DNA of 64,000 nt from Escherichia coli (GTDB lineage Bacteria; Pseudomonadota; Gammaproteobacteria; Enterobacterales; Enterobacteriaceae): assembly GCF_041248615.1 (NCBI RefSeq), contig NZ_CP158426.1, one strand, 5' to 3'. Positions 3,876 to 56,154 of the stretch are shown piece after piece. Under the pieces are notes generated by a model. That model had not been told where the DNA came from. It worked only from the letters and a program-made list of their open reading frames with translations, and made no database searches. Made by a program: the position numbers and the translations under genes. Position 1 is the first letter of the stretch. Each line of letters opens with the position of its first letter.

Positions 3876-3904
3876 TACACTTAAGGCAAATTAACTCCTC
3901 TTCG

Positions 3905-3928: not shown

Positions 3929-3936
3929 AGCATTGA

Positions 3937-5961
<2,025 letters not shown>

Positions 5962-35698: not shown

Positions 35699-36052
35699 TT
35701 TACATCTCTCCGCGTAATTACTGTTACGCCTGAATGACTTCATTACACCTGATACAGTGAGTTGACACCGGGCAAAACGACCTTAAAAGTCCTGTATTTT
35801 ACCGTGGGCATCACCCCAGAATTCTGAGCTAAACTGCTCCAGACGGCGCTAATGTACGCCTAAAACTGAAACGAGACAAGAGGCATTTTCTTATTTACTT
35901 TTAGTAACTTACAGGTGTCTCATATCGGCGACAGTTTAATTTCTGACGGTAATAATTAGAGATTCAGCGAAGGAAAAAACTTAAGAAAAAAGCCATAAAA
36001 ACCATGAGGTTATTATGGCTGATTTGAGGAGGGAAAGAGTAAGAGCAGTTTG

Positions 36053-36973
36053 TTAAATGTATAGCGACGATTCTCCCACCGGGCGCGTTTTAAAGCGACG
36101 GTGGATCCAGAGGTACTGCTCCGGTGCGCGCATGATCTCTTTTTCGATAATCTTGTTCATATAGGCAGCGGCTTGATTTTCATCTGCCGGGTAGCCTTCC
36201 ATCTCTGGGGTGATGTACAAACGATATCCGCTGTAATCCGCTTTTCTTACCATCGTTACGGTTAACATGGCTGCGCCAGAGAGACGTGAAAGGACATACG
36301 TACCATTGGTTGTGGCGACATTTTCCACCGCAAAGAACGGCGCGAAGGAGCTGCCTTTACGACCATAATCCTGATCGGGAGCAAACCATACCGCTTCACC
36401 TTTCTTCAGTGCACCGACAATGCCGCGCAGATTATTTCTGCCGATCATCGCTTTGTTAGAGCGCATGCGCCCACGGGTCTGCACCCATTCCATCAGCTGA
36501 TTATTATGTGGACGATAGGTAGCCATCATTGGTTGGCACAGTCCCATCACGCGGCCGCCCAGTTCCAGCGACATAAAATGGACGCCGACAACCATTACGC
36601 CGCGATTTTGCATTTGTGCGCGTTTAAGGTTATCCAACCCTTCAACATCAAACCATTTACGTACGCGACTGTCGGGCCAGAACCACGCCATGCCGGTTTC
36701 TACCAGCGCCATGCCGAGTGAACGAAAGTTTTCGGCAATCATCTTCTCGCGTTCTTCCGCAGAATGCTGTGGGAAACAAAGTTCCAGGTTTTTACGGGCG
36801 ATAGATTCACGCCGTTTCAGGAATGGTCGCGCCATTGCGCCAATACGCGTGCCGAGAAAGCAGAGAACAGGATAAGGAAGCTGTACCCAAAGCCAGAGTA
36901 CACCAAGCCCAAACCACGTGAGCCAGTAGCGAGGATGCAGAAACTCGCGGGAAAATTTGCATTTTGGAAACAT
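36053..36973 (-). CDS. lpxP: Lipid A palmitoleoyltransferase (cold-induced LpxL paralogue)
   Basis: 306 aa from MFPKCKFSREFLHPRYWLTWFGLG; track start 37039 is an over-extension. Confidence 0.9.
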   Translation of the reverse strand: MFPKCKFSREFLHPRYWLTWFGLGVLWLWVQLPYPVLCFLGTRIGAMARPFLKRRESIARKNLELCFPQHSAEEREKMIAENFRSLGMALVETGMAWFWPDSRVRKWFDVEGLDNLKRAQMQNRGVMVVGVHFMSLELGGRVMGLCQPMMATYRPHNNQLMEWVQTRGRMRSNKAMIGRNNLRGIVGALKKGEAVWFAPDQDYGRKGSSFAPFFAVENVATTNGTYVLSRLSGAAMLTVTMVRKADYSGYRLYITPEMEGYPADENQAAAYMNKIIEKEIMRAPEQYLWIHRRFKTRPVGESSLYI

Positions 36974-37325
36974 AGTTACCTTCTGTAGATACGAATTGTT
37001 GTATCGCAGAAGATTCCATGTCGACAGCGGTACACTCAATTGATTAGGCCATCATGTACGACAATGGTTCCTGTAAAGAGTGTAAAGACTAGTCAGGACA
37101 TAACCACGAGGAGCATGAATGCGGTATCTGTACTTTATCACTCGCTGACTGCTTTCAGCTACTGATTATTAATCGTGCAAAGTAAATATTTTTCCGTACG
37201 CAACAGTCTTGCATTTAACATGCTGTTTTCATTGATGCTTAGCAAAAATTGCCAGAGGTTAAGGATTGTCTTACTATTAAAGTGACTGAAGTTACAGGTT
37301 TTTTAGCGCGGCAGGAGGTTGAGCT

Positions 37326-37568
37326 ATGATTTATTTATGGATGTTTCTCGCCCTGTGTATTGTCTGCGTAAGCGGATACATCGGTCAGGTACTGAACGTG
37401 GTATCGGCGGTCTCTTCTTTCTTCGGCATGGTGATCCTCGCTGCACTCATTTATTACTTCACCATGTGGTTAACTGGCGGTAATGAACTGGTGACGGGGA
37501 TATTTATGTTTCTTGCCCCGGCTTGTGGCTTGATGATTCGCTTTATGGTGGGATATGGCAGGCGGTAG
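37326..37568 (+). CDS. yfdY: DUF2545 small inner membrane protein
   Basis: 80-aa two-TM ORF. Confidence 0.8.
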   Translation: MIYLWMFLALCIVCVSGYIGQVLNVVSAVSSFFGMVILAALIYYFTMWLTGGNELVTGIFMFLAPACGLMIRFMVGYGRR

Positions 37569-37644
37569 TGGGTCAGGATGGCTCATTTGGGCAGGTGTTC
37601 ACATCAGCATCAGACATGATTGTTCACCTGCCGTGTGACAGACG

Positions 37645-37872
37645 CTATCGCACAGGATGGATAAGATAATTCGCCTTTGTCGGAAAAGGGGGCGGAATTT
37701 CTTCTGTGAGGTTTAATGGTGGCGCATCTTCTCTCATTTTTAACAAAATCGCCTGTGATGGCTGAAATTTTGTAGAGTGAGTTGTCGTCATCGCTGACGT
37801 TTTTTCCGTCTCTTTATAGCTCGTCTCACTTCCACCACCAGAAATGGAAAATGCAAAAACATTGCATGCCAT
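37645..37872 (-). pseudogene. ypdI: Probable 5'-truncated ypdI (lipoprotein gene) abutting IS1
   Basis: 75-codon ORF MACNVFAFSISGGGSETSYKETEK... whose upstream frame runs straight into the IS1 left end at 37878; no signal peptide remains. Confidence 0.45.
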
Positions 37873-37932
37873 AATAGGGTGATGCTGCCAACTTACTGAT
37901 TTAGTGTATGATGGTGTTTTTGAGGTGCTCCA

Positions 37933-38208
37933 GTGGCTTCTGTTTCTATCAGCTGTCCCTCCTGTTCAGCTACTGACGGGGTGGTGCGTAACGGCAAAAG
38001 CACCGCCGGACATCAGCGCTATCTCTGCTCTCACTGCCGTAAAACATGGCAACTGCAGTTCACTTACACCGCTTCTCAACCCGGTACGCACCAGAAAATC
38101 ATTGATATGGCCATGAATGGCGTTGGATGCCGGGCAACCGCCCGCATTATGGGCGTTGGCCTCAACACGATTTTCCGCCATTTAAAAAACTCAGGCCGCA
38201 GTCGGTAA
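37933..38208 (+). CDS. insA: IS1 InsA
   Basis: 91 aa [43 protein letters not shown]... Confidence 0.95.
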
Positions 38209-38630
38209 CCTCGCGCATACAGCCGGGCAGTGACGTCATCGTCTGCGCGGAAATGGACGAACAGTGGGGATACGTCGGGGCTAAATCGCGCCAGCGCTGG
38301 CTGTTTTACGCGTATGACAGGCTCCGGAAGACGGTTGTTGCGCACGTATTCGGTGAACGCACTATGGCGACGCTGGGGCGTCTTATGAGCCTGCTGTCAC
38401 CCTTTGACGTGGTGATATGGATGACGGATGGCTGGCCGCTGTATGAATCCCGCCTGAAGGGAAAGCTGCACGTAATCAGCAAGCGATATACGCAGCGAAT
38501 TGAGCGGCATAACCTGAATCTGAGGCAGCACCTGGCACGGCTGGGACGGAAGTCGCTGTCGTTCTCAAAATCGGTGGAGCTGCATGACAAAGTCATCGGG
38601 CATTATCTGAACATAAAACACTATCAATAA
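38127..38630 (+). CDS. insB: IS1 InsB frame (expressed as InsAB' by -1 frameshift)
   Basis: 167-aa [19 protein letters not shown]... overlapping the insA 3' end in the -1 frame. Confidence 0.9.
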
Positions 38631-38646
38631 GTTGGAGTCATTACCT

Positions 38647-39222
38647 AATGCATTAAGTGCTGTGCGCGATGTATTGCGCGAGAACCAGGATATTTATTTA
38701 GTTAATGAAGGTGCAAATACCCTGGATAATGCACGAAATATTATTGATATGTATAAACCACGTCGCCGTCTGGATTGTGGTACCTGGGGTGTCATGGGCA
38801 TCGGTATGGGCTATGCCATCGGTGCTAGCGTGACCTCTGGTTCTCCGGTTGTCGCCATTGAAGGTGATAGTGCTTTTGGTTTCAGTGGGATGGAGATTGA
38901 AACGATTTGTCGATATAACCTGCCGGTGACGATCGTTATTTTTAATAATGGCGGCATTTACAGAGGAGACGGTGTTGATCTCAGTGGCGCTGGTGCACCA
39001 TCACCAACGGATCTGCTGCACCATGCAAGGTATGACAAATTAATGGATGCGTTTCGTGGCGTTGGCTATAACGTCACTACGACAGATGAACTTCGTCATG
39101 CTTTAACCACCGGTATTCAGTCGCGCAAACCGACCATTATTAATGTGGTCATCGACCCTGCAGCAGGAACTGAAAGTGGCCATATTACCAAACTTAACCC
39201 AAAACAAGTCGCTGGTAATTAA
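38647..39222 (+). pseudogene. oxc: oxc 3' remnant (C-terminal ~192 codons of oxalyl-CoA decarboxylase)
   Basis: Frame [27 protein letters not shown]...[33 protein letters not shown] is the TPP-binding C-terminal domain; N-terminal two-thirds absent; the track ORF begins at a TTG inside the IS1 right end (38632). Confidence 0.85.
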
Positions 39223-39290
39223 ATACTGACATCGTCTCCTCTTGCCAACTCATTATCGATGGTGAGGGGACCCTTATCGGAAATACTATT

Positions 39291-40235
39291 ATGCTAACAT
39301 TTTTTATTGGCGATTTATTGCCTATTATCGTAATCATGCTGTTGGGTTATTTTAGCGGCAGACGAGAAACTTTTTCAGAAGATCAAGCCCGGGCATTTAA
39401 TAAACTGGTATTAAACTACGCTCTTCCTGCGGCCCTATTTGTTTCTATTACCCGGGCAAACAGGGAAATGATTTTTGCGGACACTCGCCTGACCCTTGTA
39501 TCACTTGTGGTTATTGTCGGATGTTTCTTTTTCTCCTGGTTTGGTTGCTACAAATTTTTTAAACGTACTCATGCAGAAGCAGCAGTATGTGCATTAATTG
39601 CAGGTTCACCTACCATCGGATTCCTGGGATTTGCAGTTCTCGATCCTATTTATGGTGATTCCGTATCAACAGGTTTAGTTGTAGCAATTATTTCTATTAT
39701 TGTTAACGCAATTACTATTCCTATTGGTCTGTATTTGCTGAATCCTTCCTCAGGAGCAGATGGTAAGAAGAATAGTAATCTGAGCGCATTAATTTCTGCG
39801 GCAAAGGAGCCAGTAGTATGGGCACCTGTTCTGGCAACGATCCTGGTGTTGGTTGGGGTAAAAATTCCGGCAGCATGGGACCCAACCTTTAATCTGATTG
39901 CGAAGGCTAACTCAGGGGTAGCGGTATTCGCTGCGGGGTTGACTCTGGCTGCACATAAATTCGAGTTCAGTGCTGAAATTGCTTATAACACCTTCCTGAA
40001 GCTGATTCTGATGCCACTGGCGCTGCTTCTCGTGGGTATGGCATGTCATTTGAACAGCGAACATTTGCAGATGATGGTACTGGCAGGCGCCTTACCGCCG
40101 GCATTCTCCGGAATCATTATTGCCAGCCGGTTTAATGTCTACACCCGCACTGGTACAGCATCATTGGCTGTGAGCGTACTGGGCTTTGTCGTCACGGCTC
40201 CTTTGTGGATTTATGTCAGTCGACTGGTTTCATAA
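39291..40235 (+). CDS. yfdV: AEC-family (auxin efflux carrier-like) transporter
   Basis: 314-aa polytopic membrane ORF. Confidence 0.85.
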
Positions 40236-40262
40236 TTAATCATGTTATTGATTTTACATAAA

Positions 40263-40296
40263 TGCCGAAGTGTCTTTTCACCTTCGGCTTTTTTCA
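40263..40296 (+). terminator. Hairpin plus T-run between yfdV and yfdE
   Basis: gccgaagtg-tcttttcac-cttcggc followed by TTTTTT. Confidence 0.5.
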
Positions 40297-40308
40297 AGGC
40301 ATAAGCAA

Positions 40309-41454
40309 ATGACAAATAATGAATGCAAAGGGCCGTTTGAAGGCTTATTAGTTATCGATATGACACATGTCCTTAATGGACCTTTCGGAACTCAACTTCT
40401 TTGTAATATGGGCGCAAGGGTAATTAAAGTTGAGCCGCCGGGTCATGGTGATGATACCCGCACATTTGGTCCCTATGTGGATGGGCAGTCACTCTATTAC
40501 AGTTTTATTAATCATGGCAAAGAGAGTGTGGTTCTTGATTTAAAGAATGCTCACGATAAAAGTATATTTATAAATATGCTTAAACAAGCTGATGTATTAG
40601 CTGAGAATTTTCGCCCAGGTACAATGGAAAAACTGGGGTTTTCATGGGAAAGGTTACAAGAAATCAACCCGCGCCTCATCTATGCTTCATCGTCGGGTTT
40701 CGGGCATACCGGTCCGTTAAAAGATGCTCCTGCCTACGATACCATTATTCAGGCAATGAGCGGGATAATGATGGAAACAGGGTACCCTGATGCTCCTCCA
40801 GTGCGTGTTGGTACCTCTCTTGCGGATCTATGCGGCGGTGTCTATTTATTCAGCGGAATAGTGAGTGCACTTTATGGTCGCGAAAAGAGCCAGAGAGGGG
40901 CGCATGTCGATATAGCGATGTTTGATGCCACGCTGAGTTTTCTGGAGCATGGTCTGATGGCATATATTGCGACAGGGAAGTCACCACAACGCCTGGGAAA
41001 TCGCCATCCCTACATGGCACCTTTTGATGTTTTTGATACTCAGGATAAGCCGATTACGATTTGTTGTGGTAATGACAAGCTTTTTTCTGCGTTATGCCAG
41101 GCACTGGAGCTTACAGAACTGGTTGATGATCCCCGATTTATCAGCAATATTTTACGCGTACAAAACCAGGCTATTCTTAAACAATATATTGAGCGGACGT
41201 TAAAAACACAGGCAGCTGAAGTTTGGTTAGCCAGAATACATGAAGTTGGTGTACCCGTAGCGCCGTTATTAAGTGTGGCTGAGGCCATTAATTTGCCACA
41301 AACTCAGGCGAGAAATATGTTGATTGAAGCCGGGGGAATAATGATGCCGGGTAATCCGATAAAAATCAGCGGCTGCGCGGACCCGCATGTTATGCCGGGA
41401 GCGGCAACGCTCGACCAGCATGGGGAACAAATTCGCCAGGAATTCTCATCGTAA
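40309..41454 (+). CDS. yfdE: Acetyl-CoA:oxalate CoA-transferase (family III CoA transferase)
   Basis: 381 aa from MTNNECKGPFEGLLVIDMTHVLNGPFGTQ; track start 40270 is an over-extension. Confidence 0.85.
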   Translation: MTNNECKGPFEGLLVIDMTHVLNGPFGTQLLCNMGARVIKVEPPGHGDDTRTFGPYVDGQSLYYSFINHGKESVVLDLKNAHDKSIFINMLKQADVLAENFRPGTMEKLGFSWERLQEINPRLIYASSSGFGHTGPLKDAPAYDTIIQAMSGIMMETGYPDAPPVRVGTSLADLCGGVYLFSGIVSALYGREKSQRGAHVDIAMFDATLSFLEHGLMAYIATGKSPQRLGNRHPYMAPFDVFDTQDKPITICCGNDKLFSALCQALELTELVDDPRFISNILRVQNQAILKQYIERTLKTQAAEVWLARIHEVGVPVAPLLSVAEAINLPQTQARNMLIEAGGIMMPGNPIKISGCADPHVMPGAATLDQHGEQIRQEFSS

Positions 41455-41508
41455 ATTAAGATGTGCTGGTAAATAGCTCCCACATTTGAACATTGTGGGA
41501 GCCGCTAT

Positions 41509-44500
41509 TTAGTCATTTTGTTGACAGAAAACAGCAATCTCCTGGTCCAGCTCTGCAATGTGTTCTTTAACAGAGTTCAGCAGCTGAAGAATTTCAGGCT
41601 TACTGTCATCTGAAACAGGTGTTATTTCTAACTGATGGCTAATATTAATCAACTTTTGCAAATTCAGGATGTTAGCCGCACCGTGGATGCGATGAATACA
41701 CTGATGGAAAGTTCTGTTGTCGCCAGCTTCTAGTGCATGAAACGCAGCGGGTAGATCTTTATGCGTTTCATGCTGGAAAGTCATGAGAATCTCCTGCATC
41801 AGTTGTAGATCGTTCGCCGTATTATTTTTCAGGGCCTCGATATCAAGGTGGCGATACTGAGGTGCAATAGGCGCAACCTGGTGTAACTGACTTAAATGTG
41901 TTTTCATTACATCCAGGGTCAACGGTTTGAACAAACATAAGTTCATGCCGTAATTTAACCCTTTTTCACGTTCGTTAGCCTGTGCGTTGGCTGTAAGCCC
42001 CCAGATGGGTAAGGAAGAATTTTGCTCACGGAGTTTGCGAGTCAACTCAAAACCATCCATATTCGGCATATTAACGTCAGTAATAAGCAGATCATAATGT
42101 TGCATACTGACTTTGTGTAGCGCTTGCACACCATCAGTTGCTTCATCAACATCATATCCTAATAGGTTTAGCTGGCGTTTGAGTAATAGCCTGTTGGTCG
42201 GATGATCATCCGCGATTAATATGCTCAACTTTTCAGGGAGTGTCATGGGTTGTTCTGCTTTTGCCTCGACAGTCGCCACTTGTTGGGTAATTTCTACCGG
42301 GATTGTGATCGTAAATGTCGTTCCTATGCCTGGATGACTTTCTAATGACAAATCGCCCTGCATGTTTTTAATTAATTCTTTGCAGATCATTAAGCCTAAA
42401 CCAGAACCTGTTTGCTGACGACCTGCACTTGTTTGGCTATAGCGTTTAAACAGTTGTTGTTGTTCTTCCTGTGATAATCCACTTCCAGAATCCATAATCG
42501 TCATTTTGATTACAGCGTGGTTGTCATCAATGTTAACCAGGGAGGTCGTAATTTTTACTGCCCCCTCGGTGGTAAATTTGAGAGCATTGCTCAGTAAATT
42601 AGATAAGACCTGCTTAAACGCCTGAGGGTCGATCTTAACCAGGTAATGTTCAGGAAACGTACTGCTGCAACTTAATGCGATCGATTTGCTTGCAGCAATC
42701 GCACCGAAAGAGTGACAAGTGTTCTGGACTAAAGTAGGGATATCGACCCATTGTGGTTGAAGTTGATAGTTACCCGACTCAATTTTGTCGACATCAAGGA
42801 TTTCACCAATTAAGCCGAGGAGTGATTGTCCGGTGGCGTAGGCAAGTGAAATCGCCTCCACCCGTTGCTCCTTGCTAAGACCAGAACCCGACAGAAGTTC
42901 CAGGAAGCCCATAATGGAGCTTATTGGTGTTCTTATTTCGTGACTCATTGTTGCCAGAAACTGGCTTTTTGCGACAGTTGCATTGATCGCTTTATTTCTC
43001 TCTACTTCGAGTGCATGAATTAAATCACGCGTCTCGGTAATATCTTGCCAACCACAAATATAAACAGCATGATCGCTGGCTGGCAGATTGCATAATGTAT
43101 GCCAGTGATTAATGCATCTTTTCTCTATGCCATTATCAATTTCAAATACCTGTGTGTATATTGTTCGATTTTCTTTCGTTTCTGCTGTGACTTCATGCGC
43201 ATTAGAAAAAACATCTTTAAAGGGTGAGTCACTGTTTTCTAATGGTAACATTGCATTTTTGTAGTAATCCGCAGTGAAATAATGTTCAAAAGCACTATTA
43301 TGACTAATGACATTACCTTGCCAGTTTACAACATAAGTTGGATTCGGTAAGGAATCCGAGAGTGCTTTTCGGAATGATATTTGGTTTTCTAAATCACCCT
43401 GAATGACTTTACGACGACGAACTGAGCGTAACAGGTAGAATCCCCATAAAAGGCTACTGCCAACTAATAAAACGGATAATGTCGTGACAATATAAAATTG
43501 CTCGCTATAGAGGTCCCATGTGTCAATGGTCACATTGGGCATTTTAATCCATTTTTCCGTCAGGCGCAGAACTTCGCTTGGGGGAATTGCATTCAGAGCT
43601 TTATTAATAATATCCTTAAGTTCCGGTTCTCCGCGAGGAAAAGCGAACGAAAGCGATGCATTCTGAACGCCGGGAATAAGAAAATGATAAAGTTCATTAG
43701 GATAGTAATGGTCGATCATGTAACGTGAATTTAGCTGTGTCGCGACCAGAGCATCAAGTTCACCTTCCTTGACCTTGTGAAATGCAGCGCTGGCGTTATC
43801 GACTTTTATCCACTCTACCTCCGGATACATCTCTTTTAATTGCGAATGCAGCTCATAATAATATGGAATGGCAACTTTCATTCCTTTTTTTAATGTTTGT
43901 TCACTGTCAGGCGCTTTTTGCATGACAAAAACGTAAGGCGTTGTTATGAAGGCTTCAGCAAATAAAACATTATTTTCTCTATCTTCACTATAAATAGCAC
44001 CGGGTAATATATCCCATCCGCCGGGATTCAGCTGTGTTCCAGCATGGATATTGTGTGAAACGGTGATCGGAGAAAAATTTAAACCTGTTTGCAAGGTAAT
44101 AATATTAAGAATATCCCCCATAACGCCCCGAACCGAGCCATTTTCATCCGTCATAGAATAGGGAGGGGAGTAAGGATTTTCCAGCACCTTTAAATCGGGA
44201 TGCTGCTTAATCCACTGTTTTTCATGTTCAGTGAGTTCTAATGGTTTGTTCAGAAAGGCCAGGTTTCCTGTATCAAGCCAATTTTGTGATACTTCATAGC
44301 GAACTTCGTTTGTCAAAGCATCAACAAATCGATTGAGTACTTCATTAAGAACGACAGATTCTTTTCTGGTCAAGAAAAAATTATATTGACGCGGTGAGTT
44401 ATAATATTTCACTACATTTAAGGAGTGAGTGAAATAGCGGGAAATCATACTGCTGGTAATAATGTTACTACCAATAAAGTAATCATTCTGTCCGGCTGAG

Positions 44501-45102
44501 ACGGATGCTAATGCCTGATATAAATTTGTAAAAGAGATAATTGTTGCTTTTGGAAATGATTGATGAATTACCTCGTCTGGAGGGTAATTTGCTACCCGAG
44601 CAATATTTACTGGTTTTGATGAGGTAAGCGGTCTCATTGAATCGTGAAGGGTGGTGACGAGCGCCGGAAAGGTAATTATCAGCGGTTTGGTTGCAGCAAT
44701 GTCATCATTAAGAGGCGGCGAAGCAACTAAATGTGATAACACTATATCGACTTCCCCTTCTGTAAGCGCGTCCATTGCTTTTTGATGATCTGCGTATTCC
44801 CGGAGTGTTAATTTGATATTTAACGCTCTTTTTAAAAGATTTAAATAATCAGCATTAATACCACGAACCCGTTGCTGCGAATCGGTATGCAACAAAGTAG
44901 CCGTTTGGGACTTGTGTACTGCAATCACAAGATTTTTTTTGCTCGCTAACCAACGTAATTCCTTGTTGCTCAGACGTAGTGGATCAAGCGTGACACGGTT
45001 GTTACTACTGATGCCACGATATTCGATGTAATCTTCGTCTGCGAAACTTATGGTCGACCAAAGACCACAACAGAGAAGAATAATATAGGGTAAAAACTTC
45101 AT
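41509..45102 (-). CDS. evgS: Hybrid sensor histidine kinase EvgS
   Basis: 1197 aa with periplasmic domains, HisKA/HATPase, receiver and HPt domains. Confidence 0.95.
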   Translation of the reverse strand: MKFLPYIILLCCGLWSTISFADEDYIEYRGISSNNRVTLDPLRLSNKELRWLASKKNLVIAVHKSQTATLLHTDSQQRVRGINADYLNLLKRALNIKLTLREYADHQKAMDALTEGEVDIVLSHLVASPPLNDDIAATKPLIITFPALVTTLHDSMRPLTSSKPVNIARVANYPPDEVIHQSFPKATIISFTNLYQALASVSAGQNDYFIGSNIITSSMISRYFTHSLNVVKYYNSPRQYNFFLTRKESVVLNEVLNRFVDALTNEVRYEVSQNWLDTGNLAFLNKPLELTEHEKQWIKQHPDLKVLENPYSPPYSMTDENGSVRGVMGDILNIITLQTGLNFSPITVSHNIHAGTQLNPGGWDILPGAIYSEDRENNVLFAEAFITTPYVFVMQKAPDSEQTLKKGMKVAIPYYYELHSQLKEMYPEVEWIKVDNASAAFHKVKEGELDALVATQLNSRYMIDHYYPNELYHFLIPGVQNASLSFAFPRGEPELKDIINKALNAIPPSEVLRLTEKWIKMPNVTIDTWDLYSEQFYIVTTLSVLLVGSSLLWGFYLLRSVRRRKVIQGDLENQISFRKALSDSLPNPTYVVNWQGNVISHNSAFEHYFTADYYKNAMLPLENSDSPFKDVFSNAHEVTAETKENRTIYTQVFEIDNGIEKRCINHWHTLCNLPASDHAVYICGWQDITETRDLIHALEVERNKAINATVAKSQFLATMSHEIRTPISSIMGFLELLSGSGLSKEQRVEAISLAYATGQSLLGLIGEILDVDKIESGNYQLQPQWVDIPTLVQNTCHSFGAIAASKSIALSCSSTFPEHYLVKIDPQAFKQVLSNLLSNALKFTTEGAVKITTSLVNIDDNHAVIKMTIMDSGSGLSQEEQQQLFKRYSQTSAGRQQTGSGLGLMICKELIKNMQGDLSLESHPGIGTTFTITIPVEITQQVATVEAKAEQPMTLPEKLSILIADDHPTNRLLLKRQLNLLGYDVDEATDGVQALHKVSMQHYDLLITDVNMPNMDGFELTRKLREQNSSLPIWGLTANAQANEREKGLNYGMNLCLFKPLTLDVMKTHLSQLHQVAPIAPQYRHLDIEALKNNTANDLQLMQEILMTFQHETHKDLPAAFHALEAGDNRTFHQCIHRIHGAANILNLQKLINISHQLEITPVSDDSKPEILQLLNSVKEHIAELDQEIAVFCQQND

Positions 45103-45106
45103 GTGG

Positions 45107-45721
45107 TTAGCCGATTTTGTTACGTTGTGCGAATGTGTAAAGATCCATCAGTGATTTACATTCTAATTTTTCCATCAGGCGACTTTTATAAGTGCTGACA
45201 GTTTTGTTGCTGATGAACATTTTTTCCGCAATGTCATTATTATCCTTGCCATCAAGAATATATCGCATGACACTAATTTCTTGTTTCGATAAGGAGTCGA
45301 GTTTTTGCTGGTCGGACGTTAAACTTCCAACAAACCGGTTGAGAGAGAAGGGGAAATAGCAGTAGCCATTTTTTGCAGCTTCAATAGCCGCAATGATATT
45401 GTTCATGCCTTCTTTTTTACTCACGAATCCATTAGCGCCAGCATCAGCACAATGTTTCCCGTAAAAATGGTCATTTTTAGCGGAGACGATAATAATAATT
45501 CCGCTATATTGGCGCTTCCTCAGCGTTTCTAACACCTGGATACCGTTAACTCCGGGGATATCGACATCAATGATGACGATATCAGGTTTAAGTGTTTCCA
45601 CCCGCTGAACGGCACTTCCCCCTTCAGTCAACTCCGCTAAGATTTCAATATCGTTTTTGATCAATAAATTACGAATTGCTGCGATAGCAAGAGGATGGTC
45701 ATCAATAATTATTGCGTTCAT
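45107..45721 (-). CDS. evgA: Response regulator EvgA (NarL/FixJ family)
   Basis: 204 aa, MNAIIIDDHPLAIAAIRNLL receiver plus LuxR-type HTH. Confidence 0.95.
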   Translation of the reverse strand: MNAIIIDDHPLAIAAIRNLLIKNDIEILAELTEGGSAVQRVETLKPDIVIIDVDIPGVNGIQVLETLRKRQYSGIIIIVSAKNDHFYGKHCADAGANGFVSKKEGMNNIIAAIEAAKNGYCYFPFSLNRFVGSLTSDQQKLDSLSKQEISVMRYILDGKDNNDIAEKMFISNKTVSTYKSRLMEKLECKSLMDLYTFAQRNKIG

Positions 45722-45945
45722 AGATTATTCCCTTTGCAATGAAGCATCTCCCTTCTCCCTGTAGTAATACAGACATAAGGCATCATCTCATTTTCTCAAT
45801 AAAAATAAGAAAATTTGAGCTTCCTTTAAGATAATTCGACAAGTATACCATATAAATAGTCGGCATAAATGAAATGTCAACAATAAAATCAGGGATTGTA
45901 CCGATGATTTATAGTTTCACATTAGCACTATAAGTCTTCTCACTA

Positions 45946-45963
45946 ATCCTACATGCGTAAGAA
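45946..45963. promoter_or_regulatory. Candidate EvgA box in the evgA-emrK divergent region
   Basis: atcctaca-tg-cgtaagaa resembles the 18-bp EvgA inverted-repeat consensus TTCYTACA-NN-TGTARGAA (2 mismatches). Confidence 0.4.
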
Positions 45964-46136
45964 TTGTATTGCAAAAGCTACGGTTTAGTCCTCTGTTGTT
46001 TTTTTTGCACCTCATTTAAATTAGGCCTCCAACGTTCCTGGGACAATGTGCAACACATGCACTGTGTTTGATATGAAGAATGAATACTCTTTTCATTCAA
46101 TTCATAAATTTCATCTATGCGAAATGAGAGATAATA

Positions 46137-47300
46137 GTGGAACAGATTAATTCAAATAAAAAACATTCTAACAGAAGAAAATACTTTTCTTTATTGGCGG
46201 TAGTTTTATTTATTGCGTTTTCAGGTGCCTATGCCTATTGGTCAATGGAATTAGAAGACATGATTAGTACAGATGACGCCTATGTCACGGGGAATGCAGA
46301 TCCAATTTCTGCACAAGTTTCAGGCAGCGTCACTGTCGTTAATCATAAAGATACGAACTACGTTCGACAGGGTGACATTTTAGTCTCACTGGATAAGACT
46401 GATGCCACTATCGCACTCAATAAAGCTAAAAATAATCTGGCCAATATTGTTCGGCAAACGAATAAACTGTACTTACAGGATAAACAATACAGTGCCGAAG
46501 TCGCTTCAGCACGTATTCAGTATCAACAATCTTTAGAAGATTATAACCGTCGTGTACCTTTAGCGAAGCAGGGGGTTATTTCAAAAGAAACGCTGGAGCA
46601 TACCAAAGATACGTTAATAAGTAGCAAAGCGGCATTGAATGCTGCTATTCAGGCTTATAAAGCGAATAAAGCTTTAGTAATGAACACACCATTAAACCGT
46701 CAGCCACAAGTCGTTGAAGCGGCGGATGCAACCAAAGAAGCCTGGTTGGCGCTTAAACGTACGGATATTAAGAGTCCGGTTACCGGCTATATTGCCCAGC
46801 GAAGTGTTCAGGTCGGCGAAACAGTGAGTCCCGGACAATCGTTAATGGCTGTCGTACCGGCACGTCAAATGTGGGTTAATGCTAACTTTAAAGAAACACA
46901 ACTCACGGATGTACGGATTGGTCAATCGGTCAATATTATCAGCGATCTTTATGGTGAAAATGTTGTGTTTCATGGTCGGGTGACAGGGATCAATATGGGA
47001 ACCGGCAATGCGTTCTCCTTATTACCTGCACAAAATGCGACAGGGAACTGGATCAAAATCGTTCAGCGTGTACCGGTTGAAGTTTCTCTTGATCCAAAAG
47101 AACTCATGGAACATCCCTTACGTATTGGTTTATCGATGACAGCAACTATTGATACGAAGAACGAAGACATTGCCGAGATGCCTGAGCTGGCTTCAACCGT
47201 GACGTCCATGCCTGCTTATACCAGTAAGGCTTTAGTTATCGATACCAGTCCGATAGAAAAAGAAATTAGCAACATTATTTCGCATAATGGACAACTTTAA
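46137..47300 (+). CDS. emrK: Multidrug efflux periplasmic adaptor (EmrA paralogue)
   Basis: 387-codon ORF from a GTG; true start may be an internal ATG; HlyD-family adaptor. Confidence 0.85.
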   Translation: MEQINSNKKHSNRRKYFSLLAVVLFIAFSGAYAYWSMELEDMISTDDAYVTGNADPISAQVSGSVTVVNHKDTNYVRQGDILVSLDKTDATIALNKAKNNLANIVRQTNKLYLQDKQYSAEVASARIQYQQSLEDYNRRVPLAKQGVISKETLEHTKDTLISSKAALNAAIQAYKANKALVMNTPLNRQPQVVEAADATKEAWLALKRTDIKSPVTGYIAQRSVQVGETVSPGQSLMAVVPARQMWVNANFKETQLTDVRIGQSVNIISDLYGENVVFHGRVTGINMGTGNAFSLLPAQNATGNWIKIVQRVPVEVSLDPKELMEHPLRIGLSMTATIDTKNEDIAEMPELASTVTSMPAYTSKALVIDTSPIEKEISNIISHNGQL

Positions 47301-50292: not shown

Positions 50293-50511
50293 TTAGATGA
50301 TAAATGACAGCAGGAATGTGCCCGCCAGAGCGACGACTGAAGCGATAAATGTCGCGGTCGTATAGTATTTAAATGTTTCATTGAGCGTAGCGTCGCAATA
50401 TTGCTTCACCAGCCAGAAAAGCGAGTCCGTAACGATCGTGCAGCCAATCGCACCTGAACCGATAGCAATCGCAATAATTTCCGGGCTGATGTCGGGATAC
50501 AGCGGCAGCAC
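50293..50511 (-). pseudogene. dsdX: dsdX 3' remnant (last ~70 codons of the D-serine permease gene)
   Basis: Frame ...[71 protein letters not shown] is a GntP-family C-terminus; the upstream frame hits a stop within 15 nt, so the 5' ~85% of the gene is absent. Confidence 0.8.
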
Positions 50512-50753
50512 AATGATCCATATTTATATTTTCTTCTCCAGATTGGCGATGCCAGTTGGCATGTTTTACCTACTTGCCTACATGGTTACTCGTTGGCGAG
50601 AACAGAGGCGGAATTGGGTACAATTGTCCGGGAATTATTGTTATTTTTTATTGTATTGCCGTGTCGGGTGATAGGGCGTCGAGAATATCGTTGGATCTCG
50701 CCAGTGACGTCTGTTTCTGCTACAGTGCCCGTTTTACGGCAAACGGCTTGGGT

Positions 50754-51749
50754 ATGGCTTCATTAAAGGATGTCGCACGCCTGGCGGGAGTGTCGATGAT
50801 GACAGTCTCCCGGGTGATGCATAATGCAGAATCTGTGCGTCCTGCAACGCGTGATCGCGTATTGCAGGCAATCCAGACCCTGAATTATGTTCCTGATCTT
50901 TCCGCCCGTAAGATGCGCGCTCAAGGACGTAAGCCGTCGACTCTCGCCGTGCTGGCGCAGGACACGGCCACCACTCCTTTCTCTGTTGATATTCTGCTTG
51001 CCATTGAGCAAACCGCCAGCGAGTTCGGCTGGAATAGTTTTTTAATCAATATTTTTTCTGAAGATGACGCTGCCCGCGCGGCACGTCAGCTGCTTGCCCA
51101 CCGTCCGGATGGCATTATCTATACAACAATGGGGCTGCGACATATCACGCTGCCTGAGTCTCTGTATGGTGAAAATATTGTATTGGCGAACTGTGTGGCG
51201 GATGACCCAGCGTTACCCAGTTATATCCCTGATGATTACACTGCACAATATGAATCAACACAGCATTTGCTCGCGGCGGGCTATCGTCAACCGTTATGCT
51301 TCTGGCTACCGGAAAGTGCGTTGGCAACAGGGTATCGTCGGCAGGGATTTGAGCAGGCCTGGCGTGATGCTGGACGAGATCTGGCTGAGGTGAAACAATT
51401 TCACATGGCAACAGGTGATGATCACTACACCGATCTCGCAAGTTTACTCAATGACCACTTCAAATCTGGCAAACCAGATTTTGATGTTCTGATATGTGGT
51501 AACGATCGCGCAGCCTTTGTCGCTTATCAGGTTCTCCTGGCGAAGGGGGTACGTATCCCGCAGGATGTCGCCGTAATGGGCTTTGATAATCTGGTTGGCG
51601 TCGGGCATCTGTTTTTACCGCCGCTGACCACAATTCAGCTTCCACATGACATTATCGGGCGGGAAGCTGCATTGCATATTATTGAAGGTCGTGAAGGGGG
51701 AAGAGTGACGCGGATCCCTTGCCCGCTGTTGATCCGTTGTTCCACCTGA
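50754..51749 (+). CDS. cscR: Sucrose operon repressor (LacI family)
   Basis: 331 aa from MASLKDVARLAGVSMMTVSRVMHN (LacI-type HTH); track start 50556 is a TTG over-extension. Confidence 0.9.
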   Translation: MASLKDVARLAGVSMMTVSRVMHNAESVRPATRDRVLQAIQTLNYVPDLSARKMRAQGRKPSTLAVLAQDTATTPFSVDILLAIEQTASEFGWNSFLINIFSEDDAARAARQLLAHRPDGIIYTTMGLRHITLPESLYGENIVLANCVADDPALPSYIPDDYTAQYESTQHLLAAGYRQPLCFWLPESALATGYRRQGFEQAWRDAGRDLAEVKQFHMATGDDHYTDLASLLNDHFKSGKPDFDVLICGNDRAAFVAYQVLLAKGVRIPQDVAVMGFDNLVGVGHLFLPPLTTIQLPHDIIGREAALHIIEGREGGRVTRIPCPLLIRCST

Positions 51750-51756
51750 TATTATG

Positions 51757-53190
51757 TTAACCCAGTTGCCAGAGTGCTCCATGTTGCAGCACAGCCACTC
51801 CGTGGGAGGCATAGAGCGACAGTTCCCGTTCTTCTGGCTGCGGATATATTCGGCTACTCATCACCGCCTCCCCGTCGTTAATAAATACTTCCACGGATGA
51901 TGTATCGATAAATATCCTTAGGGCGAGCATGTCACCCTGCGGGAGGGGAATACTACGGTAGCCATCTAAATTCTCGTGTGGGTAATACCGCCACAAAACA
52001 AGTCGCTCAGATTGGTTATCAATATACAGCCGCATTCCAGTGCCGAGCTGTAATCCGTAATGTTCGGCATCACTGTTCTTCAGCGCCCACTGCAACTGAA
52101 TCTCAACTGCTTGCGCGTTTTCCTGCAAAACATATTTATTGCTGATTGTGCGGGGAGAGATAGATTGATGCTGCTGGCGTAACGACTCAGCTTCGTGTAC
52201 CGGGCGTTGTAGAAGTTTGCCATTGCTCTCTGATAGCTCGCGCGCCAGCGTCATGCAGCCTGCCCAGCCTTCACGTTTTGAGGGCATTGGCGATTCCCAC
52301 ATATCCATCCAGCCGATAACAATACGCCGACCATCCTTCGCTAAAAAGCTTTGTGGTGCATAAAAGTCATGCCCGTTATCAAGTTCAGTAAAATACCCGG
52401 ATTGTGCAAAAAGTCGTCCTGGCGACCACATTCCGGGTATTACGCCACTTTGAAAGCGATTTCGGTAACTGTATCCCTCGGCATTCATTCCCTGCGGGGA
52501 AAACATCAGATAATGCTGATCGCCAAGGCTGAAAAAGTCCGGACATTCCCACATATAGCTTTCACCCGCATCAGCGTGGGCCAGTACGCGATCGAAGGTC
52601 CATTCACGCAATGAACTGCCGCGATAAAGCAAGATCTGCCCCGTGTTGCCTGGATCTTTCGCCCCGACAACCATCCACCATGTGTCGGCTTCACGCCACA
52701 CTTTAGGATCGCGGAAGTGCATGATGCCTTCTGGTGGAGTGAGGATCACGCCCTGTTTCTCGAAATGAATACCATCCCGACTGGTAGCCAGACATTGTAC
52801 TTCGCGAATTGCATCGTCATTACCAGCACCATCGAGCCAGACGTGTCCGGTGTAGATAAGTGAGAGGACACCATTGTCATCGACAGCACTACCTGAAAAA
52901 CACCCGTCTTTGTCATTCTCGTCTCCTGGCGCTAGCGCAATAGGCTCATGCTGCCAGTGGATCATATCGTCGCTGGTGGCATGTCCCCAGTGCATTGGCC
53001 CCCAGTGTTCGCTCATCGGGTGATGTTGATAAAACGCGTGATAACGATCGTTAAACCAGATCAGGCCGTTTGGATCGTTCATCCACCCGGCAGGAGGCGC
53101 GAGGTGAAAATGGGGATAGAAAGTGTTACCTCGGCGCTCGTGAAGTTTTGCTAGTGCGTTTTGCGCCGCATGTAATCGAGATTGCGTCAT
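51757..53190 (-). CDS. cscA: Sucrose-6-phosphate hydrolase / invertase (GH32)
   Basis: 477 aa from MTQSRLHAAQNALAKL; GH32 motifs WMNDPNG and RDP. Confidence 0.9.
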   Translation of the reverse strand: MTQSRLHAAQNALAKLHERRGNTFYPHFHLAPPAGWMNDPNGLIWFNDRYHAFYQHHPMSEHWGPMHWGHATSDDMIHWQHEPIALAPGDENDKDGCFSGSAVDDNGVLSLIYTGHVWLDGAGNDDAIREVQCLATSRDGIHFEKQGVILTPPEGIMHFRDPKVWREADTWWMVVGAKDPGNTGQILLYRGSSLREWTFDRVLAHADAGESYMWECPDFFSLGDQHYLMFSPQGMNAEGYSYRNRFQSGVIPGMWSPGRLFAQSGYFTELDNGHDFYAPQSFLAKDGRRIVIGWMDMWESPMPSKREGWAGCMTLARELSESNGKLLQRPVHEAESLRQQHQSISPRTISNKYVLQENAQAVEIQLQWALKNSDAEHYGLQLGTGMRLYIDNQSERLVLWRYYPHENLDGYRSIPLPQGDMLALRIFIDTSSVEVFINDGEAVMSSRIYPQPEERELSLYASHGVAVLQHGALWQLG

Positions 53191-53405
53191 TTTTATCATC
53201 CTGGTTAAGCAAATTTGGTGAATTGTTAACGTTAACTTTTATAAAAATAAAGTCCCTTACTTTCATAAATGCGATGAATATCACAAATGTTAACGTTAAC
53301 TATGACGTTTTGTGATCGAATATGCATGTTTTAGTAAATCCATGACGATTTTGCGAAAAAGAGGTTTATCACTATGCGTAAGTCAGATGAATTTAAGGGA
53401 AAAAA

Positions 53406-54329
53406 ATGTCAGCCAAAGTATGGGTTTTAGGGGATGCGGTCGTAGATCTCTTGCCAGAATCAGACGGGCGGCTACTGCCTTGTCCTGGCGGCGCGCCAGC
53501 TAACGTTGCGGTGGGAATCGCCAGATTAGGCGGAACAAGTGGGTTTATAGGTCGGGTCGGTGATGATCCTTTTGGTGCGTTAATGCAAAGAACGCTGCTA
53601 ACTGAGGGTGTCGATATCACGTTTCTGAAGCAAGATGAATGGCACCGGACATCCACGGTGCTTGTCGATCTGAACGATCAAGGAGAACGTTCATTTACGT
53701 TTATGGTCCGCCCCAGTGCCGATCTTTTTTTAGAGACGACAGACTTGCCCCGCTGGCGACATGGCGAATGGTTACATCTCTGTTCAATTGCGTTGTCTGC
53801 CGAGCCTTCGCGTACCAGCGCATTTACTGCGATGACGGCGATCCGGCATGCCGGAGGTTTTGTCAGCTTCGATCCCAATATTCGTGAAGATCTATGGCAA
53901 GACGAGCATTTGCTCCGCTTGTGTTTGCGGCAGGCGCTACAACTGGCGGATGTCGTCAAGCTCTCGGAAGAAGAATGGCGACTTATCAGTGGAAAAACAC
54001 AGAACGATCGGGATATATGCGCCCTGGCAAAAGAGTATGAGATCGCCATGCTGTTGGTGACTAAAGGTGCAGAAGGGGTGGTGGTCTGTTATCGAGGACA
54101 AGTTCACCATTTTGCTGGAATGTCTGTGAATTGTGTCGATAGCACTGGGGCGGGAGATGCGTTCGTTGCCGGGTTACTCACAGGTCTGTCCTCTACGGGA
54201 TTATCTACAGATGAGAGAGAAATGCGACGAATTATCGATCTCGCTCAACGTTGCGGAGCGCTTGCAGTAACAGCGAAAGGGGCAATGACAGCGCTGCCAT
54301 GTCGACAAGAACTGGAAGGTGAGAAGTAA
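53406..54329 (+). CDS. cscK: Fructokinase (pfkB/ribokinase family)
   Basis: 307 aa, MSAKVWVLGDAVVDLL...GAGDAF motifs. Confidence 0.9.
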   Translation: MSAKVWVLGDAVVDLLPESDGRLLPCPGGAPANVAVGIARLGGTSGFIGRVGDDPFGALMQRTLLTEGVDITFLKQDEWHRTSTVLVDLNDQGERSFTFMVRPSADLFLETTDLPRWRHGEWLHLCSIALSAEPSRTSAFTAMTAIRHAGGFVSFDPNIREDLWQDEHLLRLCLRQALQLADVVKLSEEEWRLISGKTQNDRDICALAKEYEIAMLLVTKGAEGVVVCYRGQVHHFAGMSVNCVDSTGAGDAFVAGLLTGLSSTGLSTDEREMRRIIDLAQRCGALAVTAKGAMTALPCRQELEGEK

Positions 54330-54390
54330 ACGGCGAGGCCGCTCTTATCTCTAAATAGGACATGAATTTTTTAACGACAGGCAGGTAATT

Positions 54391-55638
54391 ATGGCACTGA
54401 ATATTCCATTCAGAAATGCGTACTATCGTTTTGCATCCAGTTACTCATTTCTCTTTTTTATTTCCTGGTCGCTGTGGTGGTCGTTATACGCTATTTGGCT
54501 GAAAGGACATCTAGGATTAACAGGGACGGAATTAGGTACACTTTATTCGGTCAACCAGTTTACCAGCATTCTATTTATGATGTTCTACGGCATCGTTCAG
54601 GATAAACTCGGTCTGAAGAAACCGCTCATCTGGTGTATGAGTTTCATTCTGGTCTTGACCGGACCGTTTATGATTTACGTTTATGAACCGTTACTGCAAA
54701 GCAATTTTTCTGTAGGTCTAATTCTGGGGGCGCTCTTTTTTGGCCTGGGGTATCTGGCGGGATGCGGTTTGCTTGACAGCTTCACCGAAAAAATGGCGCG
54801 AAATTTTCATTTCGAATATGGAACAGCGCGCGCCTGGGGATCTTTTGGCTATGCTATTGGCGCGTTCTTTGCCGGTATATTTTTTAGTATCAGTCCCCAT
54901 ATCAACTTCTGGTTGGTCTCGCTATTTGGCGCTGTATTTATGATGATCAACATGCGTTTTAAAGATAAGGATCACCAGTGCATAGCGGCGGATGCGGGAG
55001 GGGTAAAAAAAGAGGATTTTATCGCAGTTTTCAAGGATCGAAACTTCTGGGTTTTCGTCATATTTATTGTGGGGACGTGGTCTTTCTATAACATTTTTGA
55101 TCAACAACTCTTTCCTGTCTTTTATGCAGGTTTATTCGAATCACACGATGTAGGAACGCGCCTGTATGGTTATCTCAACTCATTCCAGGTGGTACTCGAA
55201 GCGCTGTGCATGGCGATTATTCCTTTCTTTGTGAATCGGGTAGGGCCAAAAAATGCATTACTTATCGGTGTTGTGATTATGGCGTTGCGTATCCTTTCTT
55301 GCGCGCTGTTCGTTAACCCCTGGATTATTTCATTAGTGAAGCTGTTACATGCCATTGAGGTTCCACTTTGTGTCATATCCGTCTTCAAATACAGCGTGGC
55401 AAACTTTGATAAGCGCCTGTCGTCGACGATCTTTCTGATTGGTTTTCAAATTGCCAGTTCGCTTGGGATTGTGCTGCTTTCAACGCCGACTGGGATACTC
55501 TTTGACCACGCAGGCTACCAGACAGTTTTCTTCGCAATTTCGGGTATTGTCTGCCTGATGTTGCTATTTGGCATTTTCTTCCTGAGTAAAAAACGCGAGC
55601 AAATAGTTATGGAAACGCCTGTACCTTCAGCAATATAG
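54391..55638 (+). CDS. cscB: Sucrose:H+ symporter (MFS oligosaccharide:H+ symporter family)
   Basis: 415-aa 12-TM MFS protein, LacY-like. Confidence 0.9.
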   Translation: MALNIPFRNAYYRFASSYSFLFFISWSLWWSLYAIWLKGHLGLTGTELGTLYSVNQFTSILFMMFYGIVQDKLGLKKPLIWCMSFILVLTGPFMIYVYEPLLQSNFSVGLILGALFFGLGYLAGCGLLDSFTEKMARNFHFEYGTARAWGSFGYAIGAFFAGIFFSISPHINFWLVSLFGAVFMMINMRFKDKDHQCIAADAGGVKKEDFIAVFKDRNFWVFVIFIVGTWSFYNIFDQQLFPVFYAGLFESHDVGTRLYGYLNSFQVVLEALCMAIIPFFVNRVGPKNALLIGVVIMALRILSCALFVNPWIISLVKLLHAIEVPLCVISVFKYSVANFDKRLSSTIFLIGFQIASSLGIVLLSTPTGILFDHAGYQTVFFAISGIVCLMLLFGIFFLSKKREQIVMETPVPSAI

Positions 55639-56079: not shown

Positions 56080-56154
56080 TGGTGTCCCCTGCAGGAATCG
56101 AACCTGCAATTAGCCCTTAGGAGGGGCTCGTTATATCCATTTAACTAAGAGGAC
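56080..56154 (-). tRNA. argW: tRNA-Arg (anticodon CCU)
   Basis: Reverse complement reads GTCCTCTTAGTTAAATGGATATAACGAGCCCCTCCTAAGGGCTAATTGCAGGTTCGATTCCTGCAGGGGACACCA. Confidence 0.9.

Follow-up and report, generated by a model that had tools for sequence, protein, structure and literature searches.

An IS1-bounded deletion appears to have removed the front of the acid-induced oxalate operon of an Escherichia coli strain, leaving a gene stub and two intact genes without their native promoters

IS1 insertions are classically polar. The element also gives rise to adjacent deletions that leave one IS copy without direct repeats, an outcome that has been documented (PMC9330008). In E. coli, EvgA sites upstream of yfdX and yfdW drive expression of yfdX and yfdWUVE (PMC3720670), and in K-12 grown at pH 5.8 the genes yfdX, frc, oxc and yfdV are co-induced (PMC10746267). 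Here we describe a locus in which both subjects meet. In the stretch of E. coli DNA that was analysed (64,000 nucleotides, hereafter the window), IS1 appears to have deleted the front of the acid-induced oxalate operon yfdX-frc-oxc-yfdV-yfdE, leaving behind a gene stub and two intact genes that lack their native promoters. Considered as a whole, with its structure and its regulatory consequences taken together, the locus is probably an ordinary IS1-promoted adjacent deletion that truncated an EvgA-activated operon. It is genome decay of the ordinary sort, with no demonstrable rewiring. The features of the region are listed in Table 1.

Table 1. Positions of the features discussed, in window coordinates.
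Feature	Coordinates	Strand	Basis or remark
ypdI remnant	37645..37877	-	blastn against K-12 and NRZ14408; translation comparison
IS1 (IS1B-like), intact	37878..38645	+	100% identical to the PGAP-annotated IS1B-family element in NZ_LT599825.1
PIRL, IS1 promoter (CTGCCA-16-TATGAT)	37885..37912	+	sigma-70 score 8.63; only good sigma-70 match upstream of yfdV
insA	GTG 37933 to stop 38208	+	
A6C frameshift motif	38184-38190	+	joins insA and insB' (-1 frameshifting)
insAB' transposase frame	37933..38630 (TAA 38628-38630)	+	PGAP 'programmed frameshift' CDS at the equivalent NRZ14408 position
'Fusion' ORF	38632..39222 (TTG 38632 to stop 39220-39222)	+	196 codons
oxc-derived DNA proper	38646-39222 (577 nt)	+	pseudogene remnant; annotated in NRZ14408 as a 'missing N-terminus' pseudogene
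Candidate weak constitutive sigma-70 yfdV promoter (CTGACA-19-CATTAT)	39226..39256	+	K-12 SELEX-chip peak; hexamers identical in the window
yfdV, AEC/Mem_trans transporter, intact	39291..40235	+	100% identical to K-12 YfdV
Intrinsic-terminator-like hairpin	40264..40294	+	between yfdV and yfdE; 9-bp stem with one bulge, then U6
yfdE, acetyl-CoA:oxalate CoA-transferase (CoA_transf_3), intact	40309..41454	+	7 substitutions relative to K-12; DNA identical to NRZ14408
Sole EvgA box left in the window	45946-45963	+	evgA-emrK intergenic; positive control for the motif search

The IS1 element is 768 bp long and is the sole IS1 copy within the 64-kb window. Its inverted repeats (IRL, 37878-37900; IRR, 38623-38645) both match the canonical IS1 repeats with 0 mismatches, and the element is oriented such that its own transcription is directed towards oxc'-yfdV-yfdE. 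The hexamers of PIRL are identical to those given for the insAB promoter in PMC3946193. The sequences that flank the element differ (CCATAATAG on the left and TAATGCATT on the right), and therefore the target-site duplication of a simple insertion (~9 bp) is missing. This is expected if an adjacent deletion came after the insertion, and is no argument against the identity of the element as IS1.

Comparison with K-12 by blastn reveals that 3,907 bp are missing. The lost DNA comprises all of yfdX and frc, the control regions in front of each (ypdI-yfdX and yfdX-frc), codons 1-373 of oxc and the first 43 nt of ypdI. Without these 43 nt, ypdI lacks a start codon and the N-terminal portion of its lipoprotein signal peptide, and the left breakpoint of the deletion falls at 37877/37878. 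The window also corresponds to positions 1568001-1635671 of NZ_LT599825.1 (E. coli NRZ14408) with 0 mismatches over 64 kb, minus record positions 1605878-1609548. Thus, the window departs from NRZ14408 solely by the loss of 3,671 bp, with one end of the gap placed exactly at IS1 base 1. The right junction between IRR and oxc is identical in NRZ14408, but this strain already lacks 233 bp of oxc and carries no target-site duplication, which rules it out as an ancestor with a simple IS1 insertion. Among 5,426 complete E. coli genomes, the right junction was found in NRZ14408 only, and the left (ypdI-IS1) junction yielded 0 matches. The oxalate operon is at least 80% present in 5,395 of these 5,426 genomes. 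An operon that is nearly universal in E. coli is uncommonly lost, although the manner of its loss here is mechanistically routine.

These observations indicate that IS1 originally inserted in oxc, at about nt 1117, and that the right junction has been fixed since. The left end of IS1 was then joined twice to new DNA located farther left. The first event removed 233 bp of oxc, producing the state seen in NRZ14408. In the strain of the window, ypdI was reached by a second deletion, which might be an extension of the first or might have proceeded independently from the original insertion. The locus has the features of an adjacent deletion, in that one junction is as in the relative, the other IS end abuts non-contiguous DNA at its terminal base, and the intervening DNA is absent.

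An alternative route to the same structure is homologous recombination between two direct IS1 copies, one in oxc and one from a transient insertion in ypdI, in place of one-step intramolecular transposition. Recombination of this type yields the same product of one IS, no target-site duplication, and loss of the DNA between (PMC9330008). Furthermore, the yfdX-oxc region has received repeated IS1 insertions in other E. coli, and a few genomes carry IS1 copies near ypdI. However, IS1 is present at this precise ypdI position in 0 of the 5,426 complete genomes, and ypdI is free of IS1 in NRZ14408, which otherwise matches the window throughout the 64 kb. Two left breakpoints combined with a single fixed right junction are the signature of classical nested adjacent deletions, and we consider the recombination route unlikely. 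Although 0 mismatches with NRZ14408 over 64,000 bases, and a deletion end that sits in a multicopy repeat where assemblers err, could point to a mis-assembly or a minority culture variant of what is really an NRZ14408-like strain, the join of unique ypdI sequence to exactly the first IRL base is the sort of precise junction that transposition makes, and an assembler could not have been misled by an IS1 in ypdI of NRZ14408, where there is none, such that this explanation is highly improbable.

EvgA boxes were sought as the inverted repeat TTCYTACA-N2-TGTARGAA. The intact relative carries three (L001 positions 515-532, 553-570 and 1544-1561), all of which lie inside the deleted interval (330-4000). 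A motif search of the window found no EvgA box near the junction (around 37500-41500). The loss of native EvgA control asserted in the preliminary description is therefore borne out, because every EvgA box of the operon is deleted. The same description was correct that the native promoter upstream of yfdX is gone, but its count was too low, since two EvgA-dependent promoter regions (one preceding yfdX, the other preceding frc) have been removed and not one. From the DNA alone, we infer that neither acid nor EvgA can any longer induce yfdV and yfdE.

The preliminary description also proposed that yfdV and yfdE may now depend on read-through from IS1. Neighbouring genes can indeed be activated by IS1 fusion promoters (PMC8764528, PMC9330008), but a hybrid promoter of this kind needs a -10 element that is correctly spaced from the IS1 -35 (PMC8764528). 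In the window, the candidate -35 within IRR is TTGGAG (38632-38637), which overlaps the TTG start codon of the junction-spanning frame. When scored with a position weight matrix (PWM) and spacers of 15-19, its best -10 partner reached a log-odds value of 0.19, versus 8.63 for PIRL. A hybrid promoter at the IRR junction was rejected on this basis, and a further scan at a 9/12 threshold likewise reported none there. A cryptic sigma-70 promoter within the oxc remnant was also rejected, given that the best scores of 7.24 (38891) and 6.57 (38702) compare with a mean shuffle maximum of 9.48. Promoter-like sites scoring at least 6 numbered 6, compared with 13.1 expected in shuffles.

A further candidate lies directly upstream of yfdV. 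For the K-12 oxc-yfdV spacer, an in vitro SELEX-chip study with RpoD holoenzyme reported a binding peak along with a predicted promoter, CTGACA-19-CATTAT (PMC3946193), whose hexamers were picked out by eye and stand at a non-optimal distance of 19 bp. The relative height of the peak in vitro is 0.04 (PMC3946193), the PWM score of 5.61 falls below the same mean shuffle maximum, and the site overlaps a 12-bp hairpin predicted by folding at 39234-39271. In addition, the spacer is flagged as H-NS-bound in Table S2B of that study, and for this reason the promoter may be silent in vivo. An independent promoter immediately upstream of yfdV had been named beforehand as evidence against dependence on IS1. 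The conserved in vitro site, with its weak PWM score, would supply that evidence in part. Regarding termination, a scan found no intrinsic terminator above chance level between PIRL and yfdV. Windows with C>G are present at 39067-39262, and a terminator within IS1 has been described (Hubner 1987, as cited in PMC12095673). No structured RNA or sRNA match to Rfam was found in 36000-46500.

What can be said of transcript levels in the window's strain is read from these sequence features. Some IS1 read-through may occur, because IS1 is co-oriented with oxc'-yfdV-yfdE and no intrinsic terminator above chance intervenes. A stronger version of this proposal is that yfdV and yfdE are mainly transcribed from IS1, starting at PIRL or at a hybrid promoter in IRR and continuing through the oxc remnant, with the Oxc C-terminal domain made from TTG 38632. 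The standing of PIRL as the best sigma-70 match upstream of yfdV and the open frame across the junction also agree with this version. However, the -35 in IRR lacks a correctly spaced -10, the TTG has no Shine-Dalgarno (SD) sequence, and polarity is the classical behaviour of IS1 insertions. PIRL is itself reportedly weak and repressed by InsA, findings that are attributed to Zerbib (1990) and Machida (1989). Transcripts from PIRL would have to cross ~1.08 kb of essentially untranslated RNA between the insA stop codon (38208) and the yfdV start codon (39291), a stretch that favours Rho termination and where Rho should curtail read-through. An independent RNA polymerase site, known in vitro, is located directly upstream of yfdV, and a terminator precedes yfdE. 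We therefore regard transcription mainly from IS1 as doubtful; the dependence of yfdV-yfdE on IS1 is not supported in view of the missing hybrid promoter, the poorly translated RNA and the sigma-70 site in the spacer. Residual expression of both genes would be low, and would more probably stem from the weak sigma-70 site between oxc and yfdV than from IS1. Expression of yfdE would be attenuated further by the terminator in front of it.

The junction itself creates the frame noted in the preliminary description, which begins at a TTG inside the IS1 right repeat and continues into oxc without a stop. This observation is confirmed. The frame is open from 38617, following an in-frame TAA at 38614-38616, until 39222, and IS1 contributes 14 nt to the ORF. 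Its predicted product starts with L-E-S-L-P and continues with 191 residues that match K-12 Oxc N374-N564 exactly. None of the three frames contains a stop within the final ~15 nt of IS1, so the probability that the TTG would be in frame with oxc is about 1 in 3. The in-frame fusion does not go beyond what chance would provide and is a by-product of the junction. The data also do not support a functional translational fusion. Anti-SD pairing at TTG 38632 amounts to -0.3 kcal/mol, compared with -6.9 for insA, only 5 codons stem from the junction, and the product retains TPP_enzyme_C and is devoid of TPP_enzyme_N and TPP_enzyme_M. In thiamine diphosphate (ThDP) enzymes the PYR and PP domains jointly form the active sites, and an isolated PP domain should not be capable of acting as a ThDP enzyme. 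Translation of the fusion frame would probably not reach a useful level. Two alternative in-frame start codons, ATG 38794 and ATG 38806, are preceded by some SD-like pairing (-6.0 kcal/mol) and would yield even shorter PP-domain fragments.

Both yfdV and yfdE were stated to be intact, and this is correct. The yfdV-yfdE spacer, which contains the terminator-like hairpin, is identical to that of K-12. A promoter for yfdE in this spacer was considered and rejected, as there are weak matches only, in one of which the -10 shares bases with the start codon, and PMC3946193 lists no SELEX entry for it.

The deletion has cost the strain Frc and Oxc, and also periplasmic YfdX and an intact YpdI. The oxalate-dependent acid response needs both Frc and Oxc (PMC3720670), and the strain should therefore have lost oxalate-dependent acid tolerance. 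At least one of the deleted AT-rich control regions, the yfdX-frc spacer, is flagged as H-NS-bound, and the loss of such regions could alter local silencing in either direction. It is conceivable, though improbable, that the deletion has turned yfdV-yfdE from a tightly silenced, acid-induced unit into one with weak constitutive expression via PIRL read-through, the spacer promoter, or both. If so, the strain would possess an EvgA-independent transporter and an acetyl-CoA:oxalate CoA-transferase whose product, oxalyl-CoA, would not be consumed by any decarboxylase. Since the window's strain is a clonal relative of NRZ14408, the importance of the locus beyond strain bookkeeping is slight. The two strains nevertheless form a natural and nearly isogenic pair (identical at least across the 64-kb window) for gauging yfdV and yfdE expression without EvgA promoters.

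Among described systems, the locus most closely follows the classic nested deletions of IS1 (Turlan & Chandler 1995, IS1/Tn9), as these are summarized in the review PMC9330008. In both cases a single IS1 persists with one of its junctions preserved, its opposite end meets a new AT-rich site exactly at the terminal base, direct repeats are absent, and the intervening DNA is lost. The two left end-points and the one fixed right junction formed by the window and NRZ14408 are a further likeness. There is no difference in kind, and only the ypdI end-point (0 of the 5,426 complete genomes) is new.

The yfdX'-IS1A-'oxc allele of E. coli FORC_081 (NZ_CP029057.1) is an IS1-bounded deletion of independent origin that affects this operon in the same orientation, and it likewise keeps a 3' remnant of oxc (627 nt there) together with intact yfdV and yfdE. 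In contrast to the window, it involves another IS1 variant and other breakpoints, keeps the yfdX promoter and EvgA boxes, and has an intact ypdI. IS1 fusion promoters, such as those at blaTEM (Prentki 1986), acrEF (Olliver 2005) and afaA in ST131 (PMC8764528), share with this locus an outward -35-like hexamer, TTGGAG, that faces downstream genes. However, here the flank offers no -10 at 16-18 bp (the candidates are TAAGTG, AAGTGC and AGTGCT), and the first intact gene begins only after 645 bp instead of immediately downstream. Finally, the classic polar IS1 insertions in gal and lac, with their Rho-dependent polarity, resemble the locus in having IS1 within an operon whose distal genes are intact, with a long run of untranslated sequence before the next start codon. 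The upstream promoters are also deleted in the window, and the issue is consequently the residual expression of distal genes rather than polarity on an active operon.

The best-supported reading of this locus is routine IS1-mediated operon decay, with the Frc/Oxc oxalate pathway abolished and yfdV and yfdE now EvgA-blind and, at best, weakly expressed. Aligned with the near-identical strain NRZ14408 (NZ_LT599825.1), the window has 100.000% identity and 0 mismatches except for one gap. Window positions 1-37877 correspond to 1568001-1605877 and positions 37878-64000 to 1609549-1635671, and the 3,671 bp missing from the window (1605878-1609548) are the sole difference. The window's source is a clonal sibling or sub-line of NRZ14408, an isolate name found in the literature on mcr-colistin resistance and on the KPC-2 carbapenemase, and zero divergence between the two marks the deletion as very recent.

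The gap edge is exactly the first base of the IS1 left inverted repeat (IRL). Searches with the canonical repeats located IRL (GGTGATGCTGCCAACTTACTGAT, 37878-37900) and the right repeat IRR (ATCAATAAGTTGGAGTCATTACC, 38623-38645), each with 0 mismatches and a single occurrence in the 64 kb. A target-site duplication is absent around the element, whose flanks are CCATAATAG and TAATGCATT. NRZ14408 carries the same element with the same IRR-oxc junction, and there IRL adjoins oxc at about nt 884. This copy (3117-5345 in L001, a locally numbered piece of that chromosome; NZ_LT599825.1 1608665-1610893) has no target duplication and is not a simple insertion, and NRZ14408 oxc is without 233 bp relative to K-12 (K-12 oxc nt ~885-1117); the strain therefore already has a first IS1 adjacent deletion of smaller size. 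A junction that stays fixed while the end-point opposite it differs between the two strains is the hallmark of nested adjacent deletions promoted by IS1, a documented class of event in which the remaining element is without direct repeats (PMC9330008).

Features at and around the IS1-oxc junction (window coordinates)
Feature	Position	Strand	Basis or detail
ypdI remnant (colanic-acid lipoprotein gene)	37645-37877	-	first 43 nt removed by same deletion
IS1, intact, 768 bp	37878-38645	+	both canonical end repeats matched
PIRL (IS1's own promoter at IRL), CTGCCA-16-TATGAT	37885-37912	+	PWM score 8.63
insA	GTG 37933 to 38208	+	frame listing
A6C frameshift motif	38184-38190	+	sequence
insB' frame end	TAA 38628-38630	+	frame listing
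TTG frame, 196 aa	38632-39222	+	ORF list
Candidate yfdV promoter, CTGACA-19-CATTAT	39226-39256	+	hexamers and spacer identical to K-12
GC-rich hairpin, 12-bp	39234-39271	+	-18.6 kcal/mol, z = -1.9, no U-tract
yfdV	39291-40235	+	ORF list
Intrinsic terminator-like hairpin	40264-40294	+	9-bp stem, 40264-40288 (GCCGAAGUG...CACCUUCGGC), then U6, 40289-40294
yfdE	40309-41454	+	ORF list

Relative to K-12, 3,907 bp are absent, comprising the first 43 nt of ypdI, the ypdI-yfdX intergenic region, yfdX, the 512-bp yfdX-frc spacer, frc and oxc codons 1-373. The loss from ypdI includes its start codon, signal-peptide residues MKVNLILFSLFLLV and promoter region; its listed 75-aa ORF uses an internal Met start (37872), 5 nt from the IS1 end, and the outward -35 of IRL (TTGGCA) has no properly spaced -10 toward ypdI. 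Past yfdE lie evgS and evgA on the minus strand. Elsewhere in the window (~50293-55900), dsdX is cut to a 219-nt remnant beside dsdA, followed by a sucrose-utilisation cluster (LacI-type regulator, cscA, kinase and MFS transporter), and a DUF4942 fragment beside tRNA-Arg (56080-56154) is the remnant of an integrated element.

The preliminary description had stated that the native operon promoter is deleted, which is right but understated, as both EvgA-dependent promoters are lost. EvgA-binding inverted repeats precede both yfdX and yfdW (frc) and drive yfdX and yfdWUVE (PMC3720670). A search with the pattern TTCYTACANNTGTARGAA, allowing up to 3 mismatches, yielded 3 matches in NRZ14408 versus 0.14 expected: two upstream of yfdX (L001 515-532 and 553-570) and a perfect match upstream of frc (L001 1544-1561), all inside the deleted interval (L001 330-4000). 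The single match in the window (45946-45963) falls in the evgA-emrK region. At pH 5.8, K-12 induces yfdX, frc, oxc and yfdV together, by about 16- to 30-fold in RNA-seq and Ribo-seq alike (PMC10746267), which agrees with yfdV normally relying on these promoters.

The TTG frame running from the IS1 right repeat into the 3' part of oxc had been placed correctly to the base, as the ORF list and translation confirm; this junction anatomy, like the loss of EvgA control, stands. Its product starts with L-E-S-L-P and continues as 191 residues that match K-12 Oxc N374-N564 exactly. The in-frame fusion is a chance by-product of the IS1-oxc junction. IS1 contributes 14 nt (38632-38645), the TTG is that of the IRR hexamer TTGGAG, a TAA lies in frame upstream (38614-38616), and the prior for falling in the oxc frame is about one in three. 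Anti-SD pairing in the 20 nt upstream is only -0.3 kcal/mol, compared with -6.9 for insA, -3.5 for yfdV and -3.0 for yfdE. Pfam recovers TPP_enzyme_C only (profile positions 10-151 of 151), with neither the N-terminal PYR domain nor the middle domain found, and PGAP calls the same DNA in NRZ14408 a pseudogene.

IS1 has the same orientation as oxc'-yfdV-yfdE, and PIRL is the best sigma-70 match on the plus strand from 37878 to 40320 in a PWM scan; a genomic SELEX study of K-12 gives its hexamers for the insAB promoter (PMC3946193). IS1 fusion promoters use an outward -35 in the repeat only with a correctly spaced -10 (PMC8764528; PMC9330008), and the IRR -35 (TTGGAG, 38632-38637) has no such partner, with spacers of 15 to 19 bp totalling 0.19 down to -8.9. 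Inside the oxc remnant, the scan found no promoter beyond shuffle levels. A score of 6 or more was reached by 6 sites, versus 13.1 expected in shuffles, where the mean maximum was 9.48. A PIRL transcript would be translated only up to the insA stop at 38208 and InsAB' frameshifting is rare, so ~1,083 nt without efficient translation would precede the yfdV start. In the final ~200 nt of that segment (39067-39262), C outnumbers G (C/G 1.2-2.3). PIRL is a weak promoter under InsA repression, insertions of IS1 exert polarity, and untranslated RNA is a target of Rho. A terminator within IS1 has been described (Hubner 1987, as cited in PMC12095673). On these grounds we infer that read-through from IS1 as far as yfdV is low. 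The proposed dependence of yfdV-yfdE on IS1 read-through is not demonstrated, and the sequence does not favour it.

An independent promoter directly upstream of yfdV, which the preliminary description had set against such dependence, finds partial support. Shimada et al. (2014) reported an in vitro RpoD-holoenzyme binding peak in the K-12 oxc-yfdV spacer (position 2488236; relative height 0.04; flagged HNS in Table S2B) and assigned it a promoter for yfdV (PMC3946193) whose motif is kept in the window, with a 1-nt deletion relative to K-12 just downstream of the -10. Against this, the peak records polymerase binding in vitro alone, the PWM score is a modest 5.61, and the 19-bp spacer is sub-optimal. 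The GC-rich hairpin within the 68-bp oxc-yfdV spacer overlaps this candidate and could act in processing or stability, or be incidental. Transcription arriving at yfdV is probably attenuated ahead of yfdE by the terminator-like hairpin, which went unreported by a standard terminator scan. The yfdV-yfdE spacer is identical to that of K-12, and conservation of the hairpin there points to attenuation of yfdE relative to yfdV in the intact operon as well. Across E. coli, yfdE is under strong purifying selection (dN/dS 0.06; PMC5706723). Because the deletion is so recent, the fact that yfdV and yfdE are still intact is uninformative on present expression or selection.

The operon is near-universal: of 5,426 complete E. 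coli genomes, 5,395 carry 80% or more of its 6.38 kb. Among the same 5,426 genomes, the ypdI'-IS1 junction was found in none and the IS1-oxc junction in NRZ14408 only. IS1 insertions in yfdX-frc-oxc recur independently across E. coli genomes (for example, L002 3817-5532), with IS1A in or beside yfdX in many and IS1 in oxc in several, which suggests that this AT-rich region is a local IS1 target hot spot. E. coli FORC_081 (NZ_CP029057.1) carries an independent yfdX'-IS1A-'oxc deletion in the same operon. Only the private allele is new here, and the kind of event is well known.
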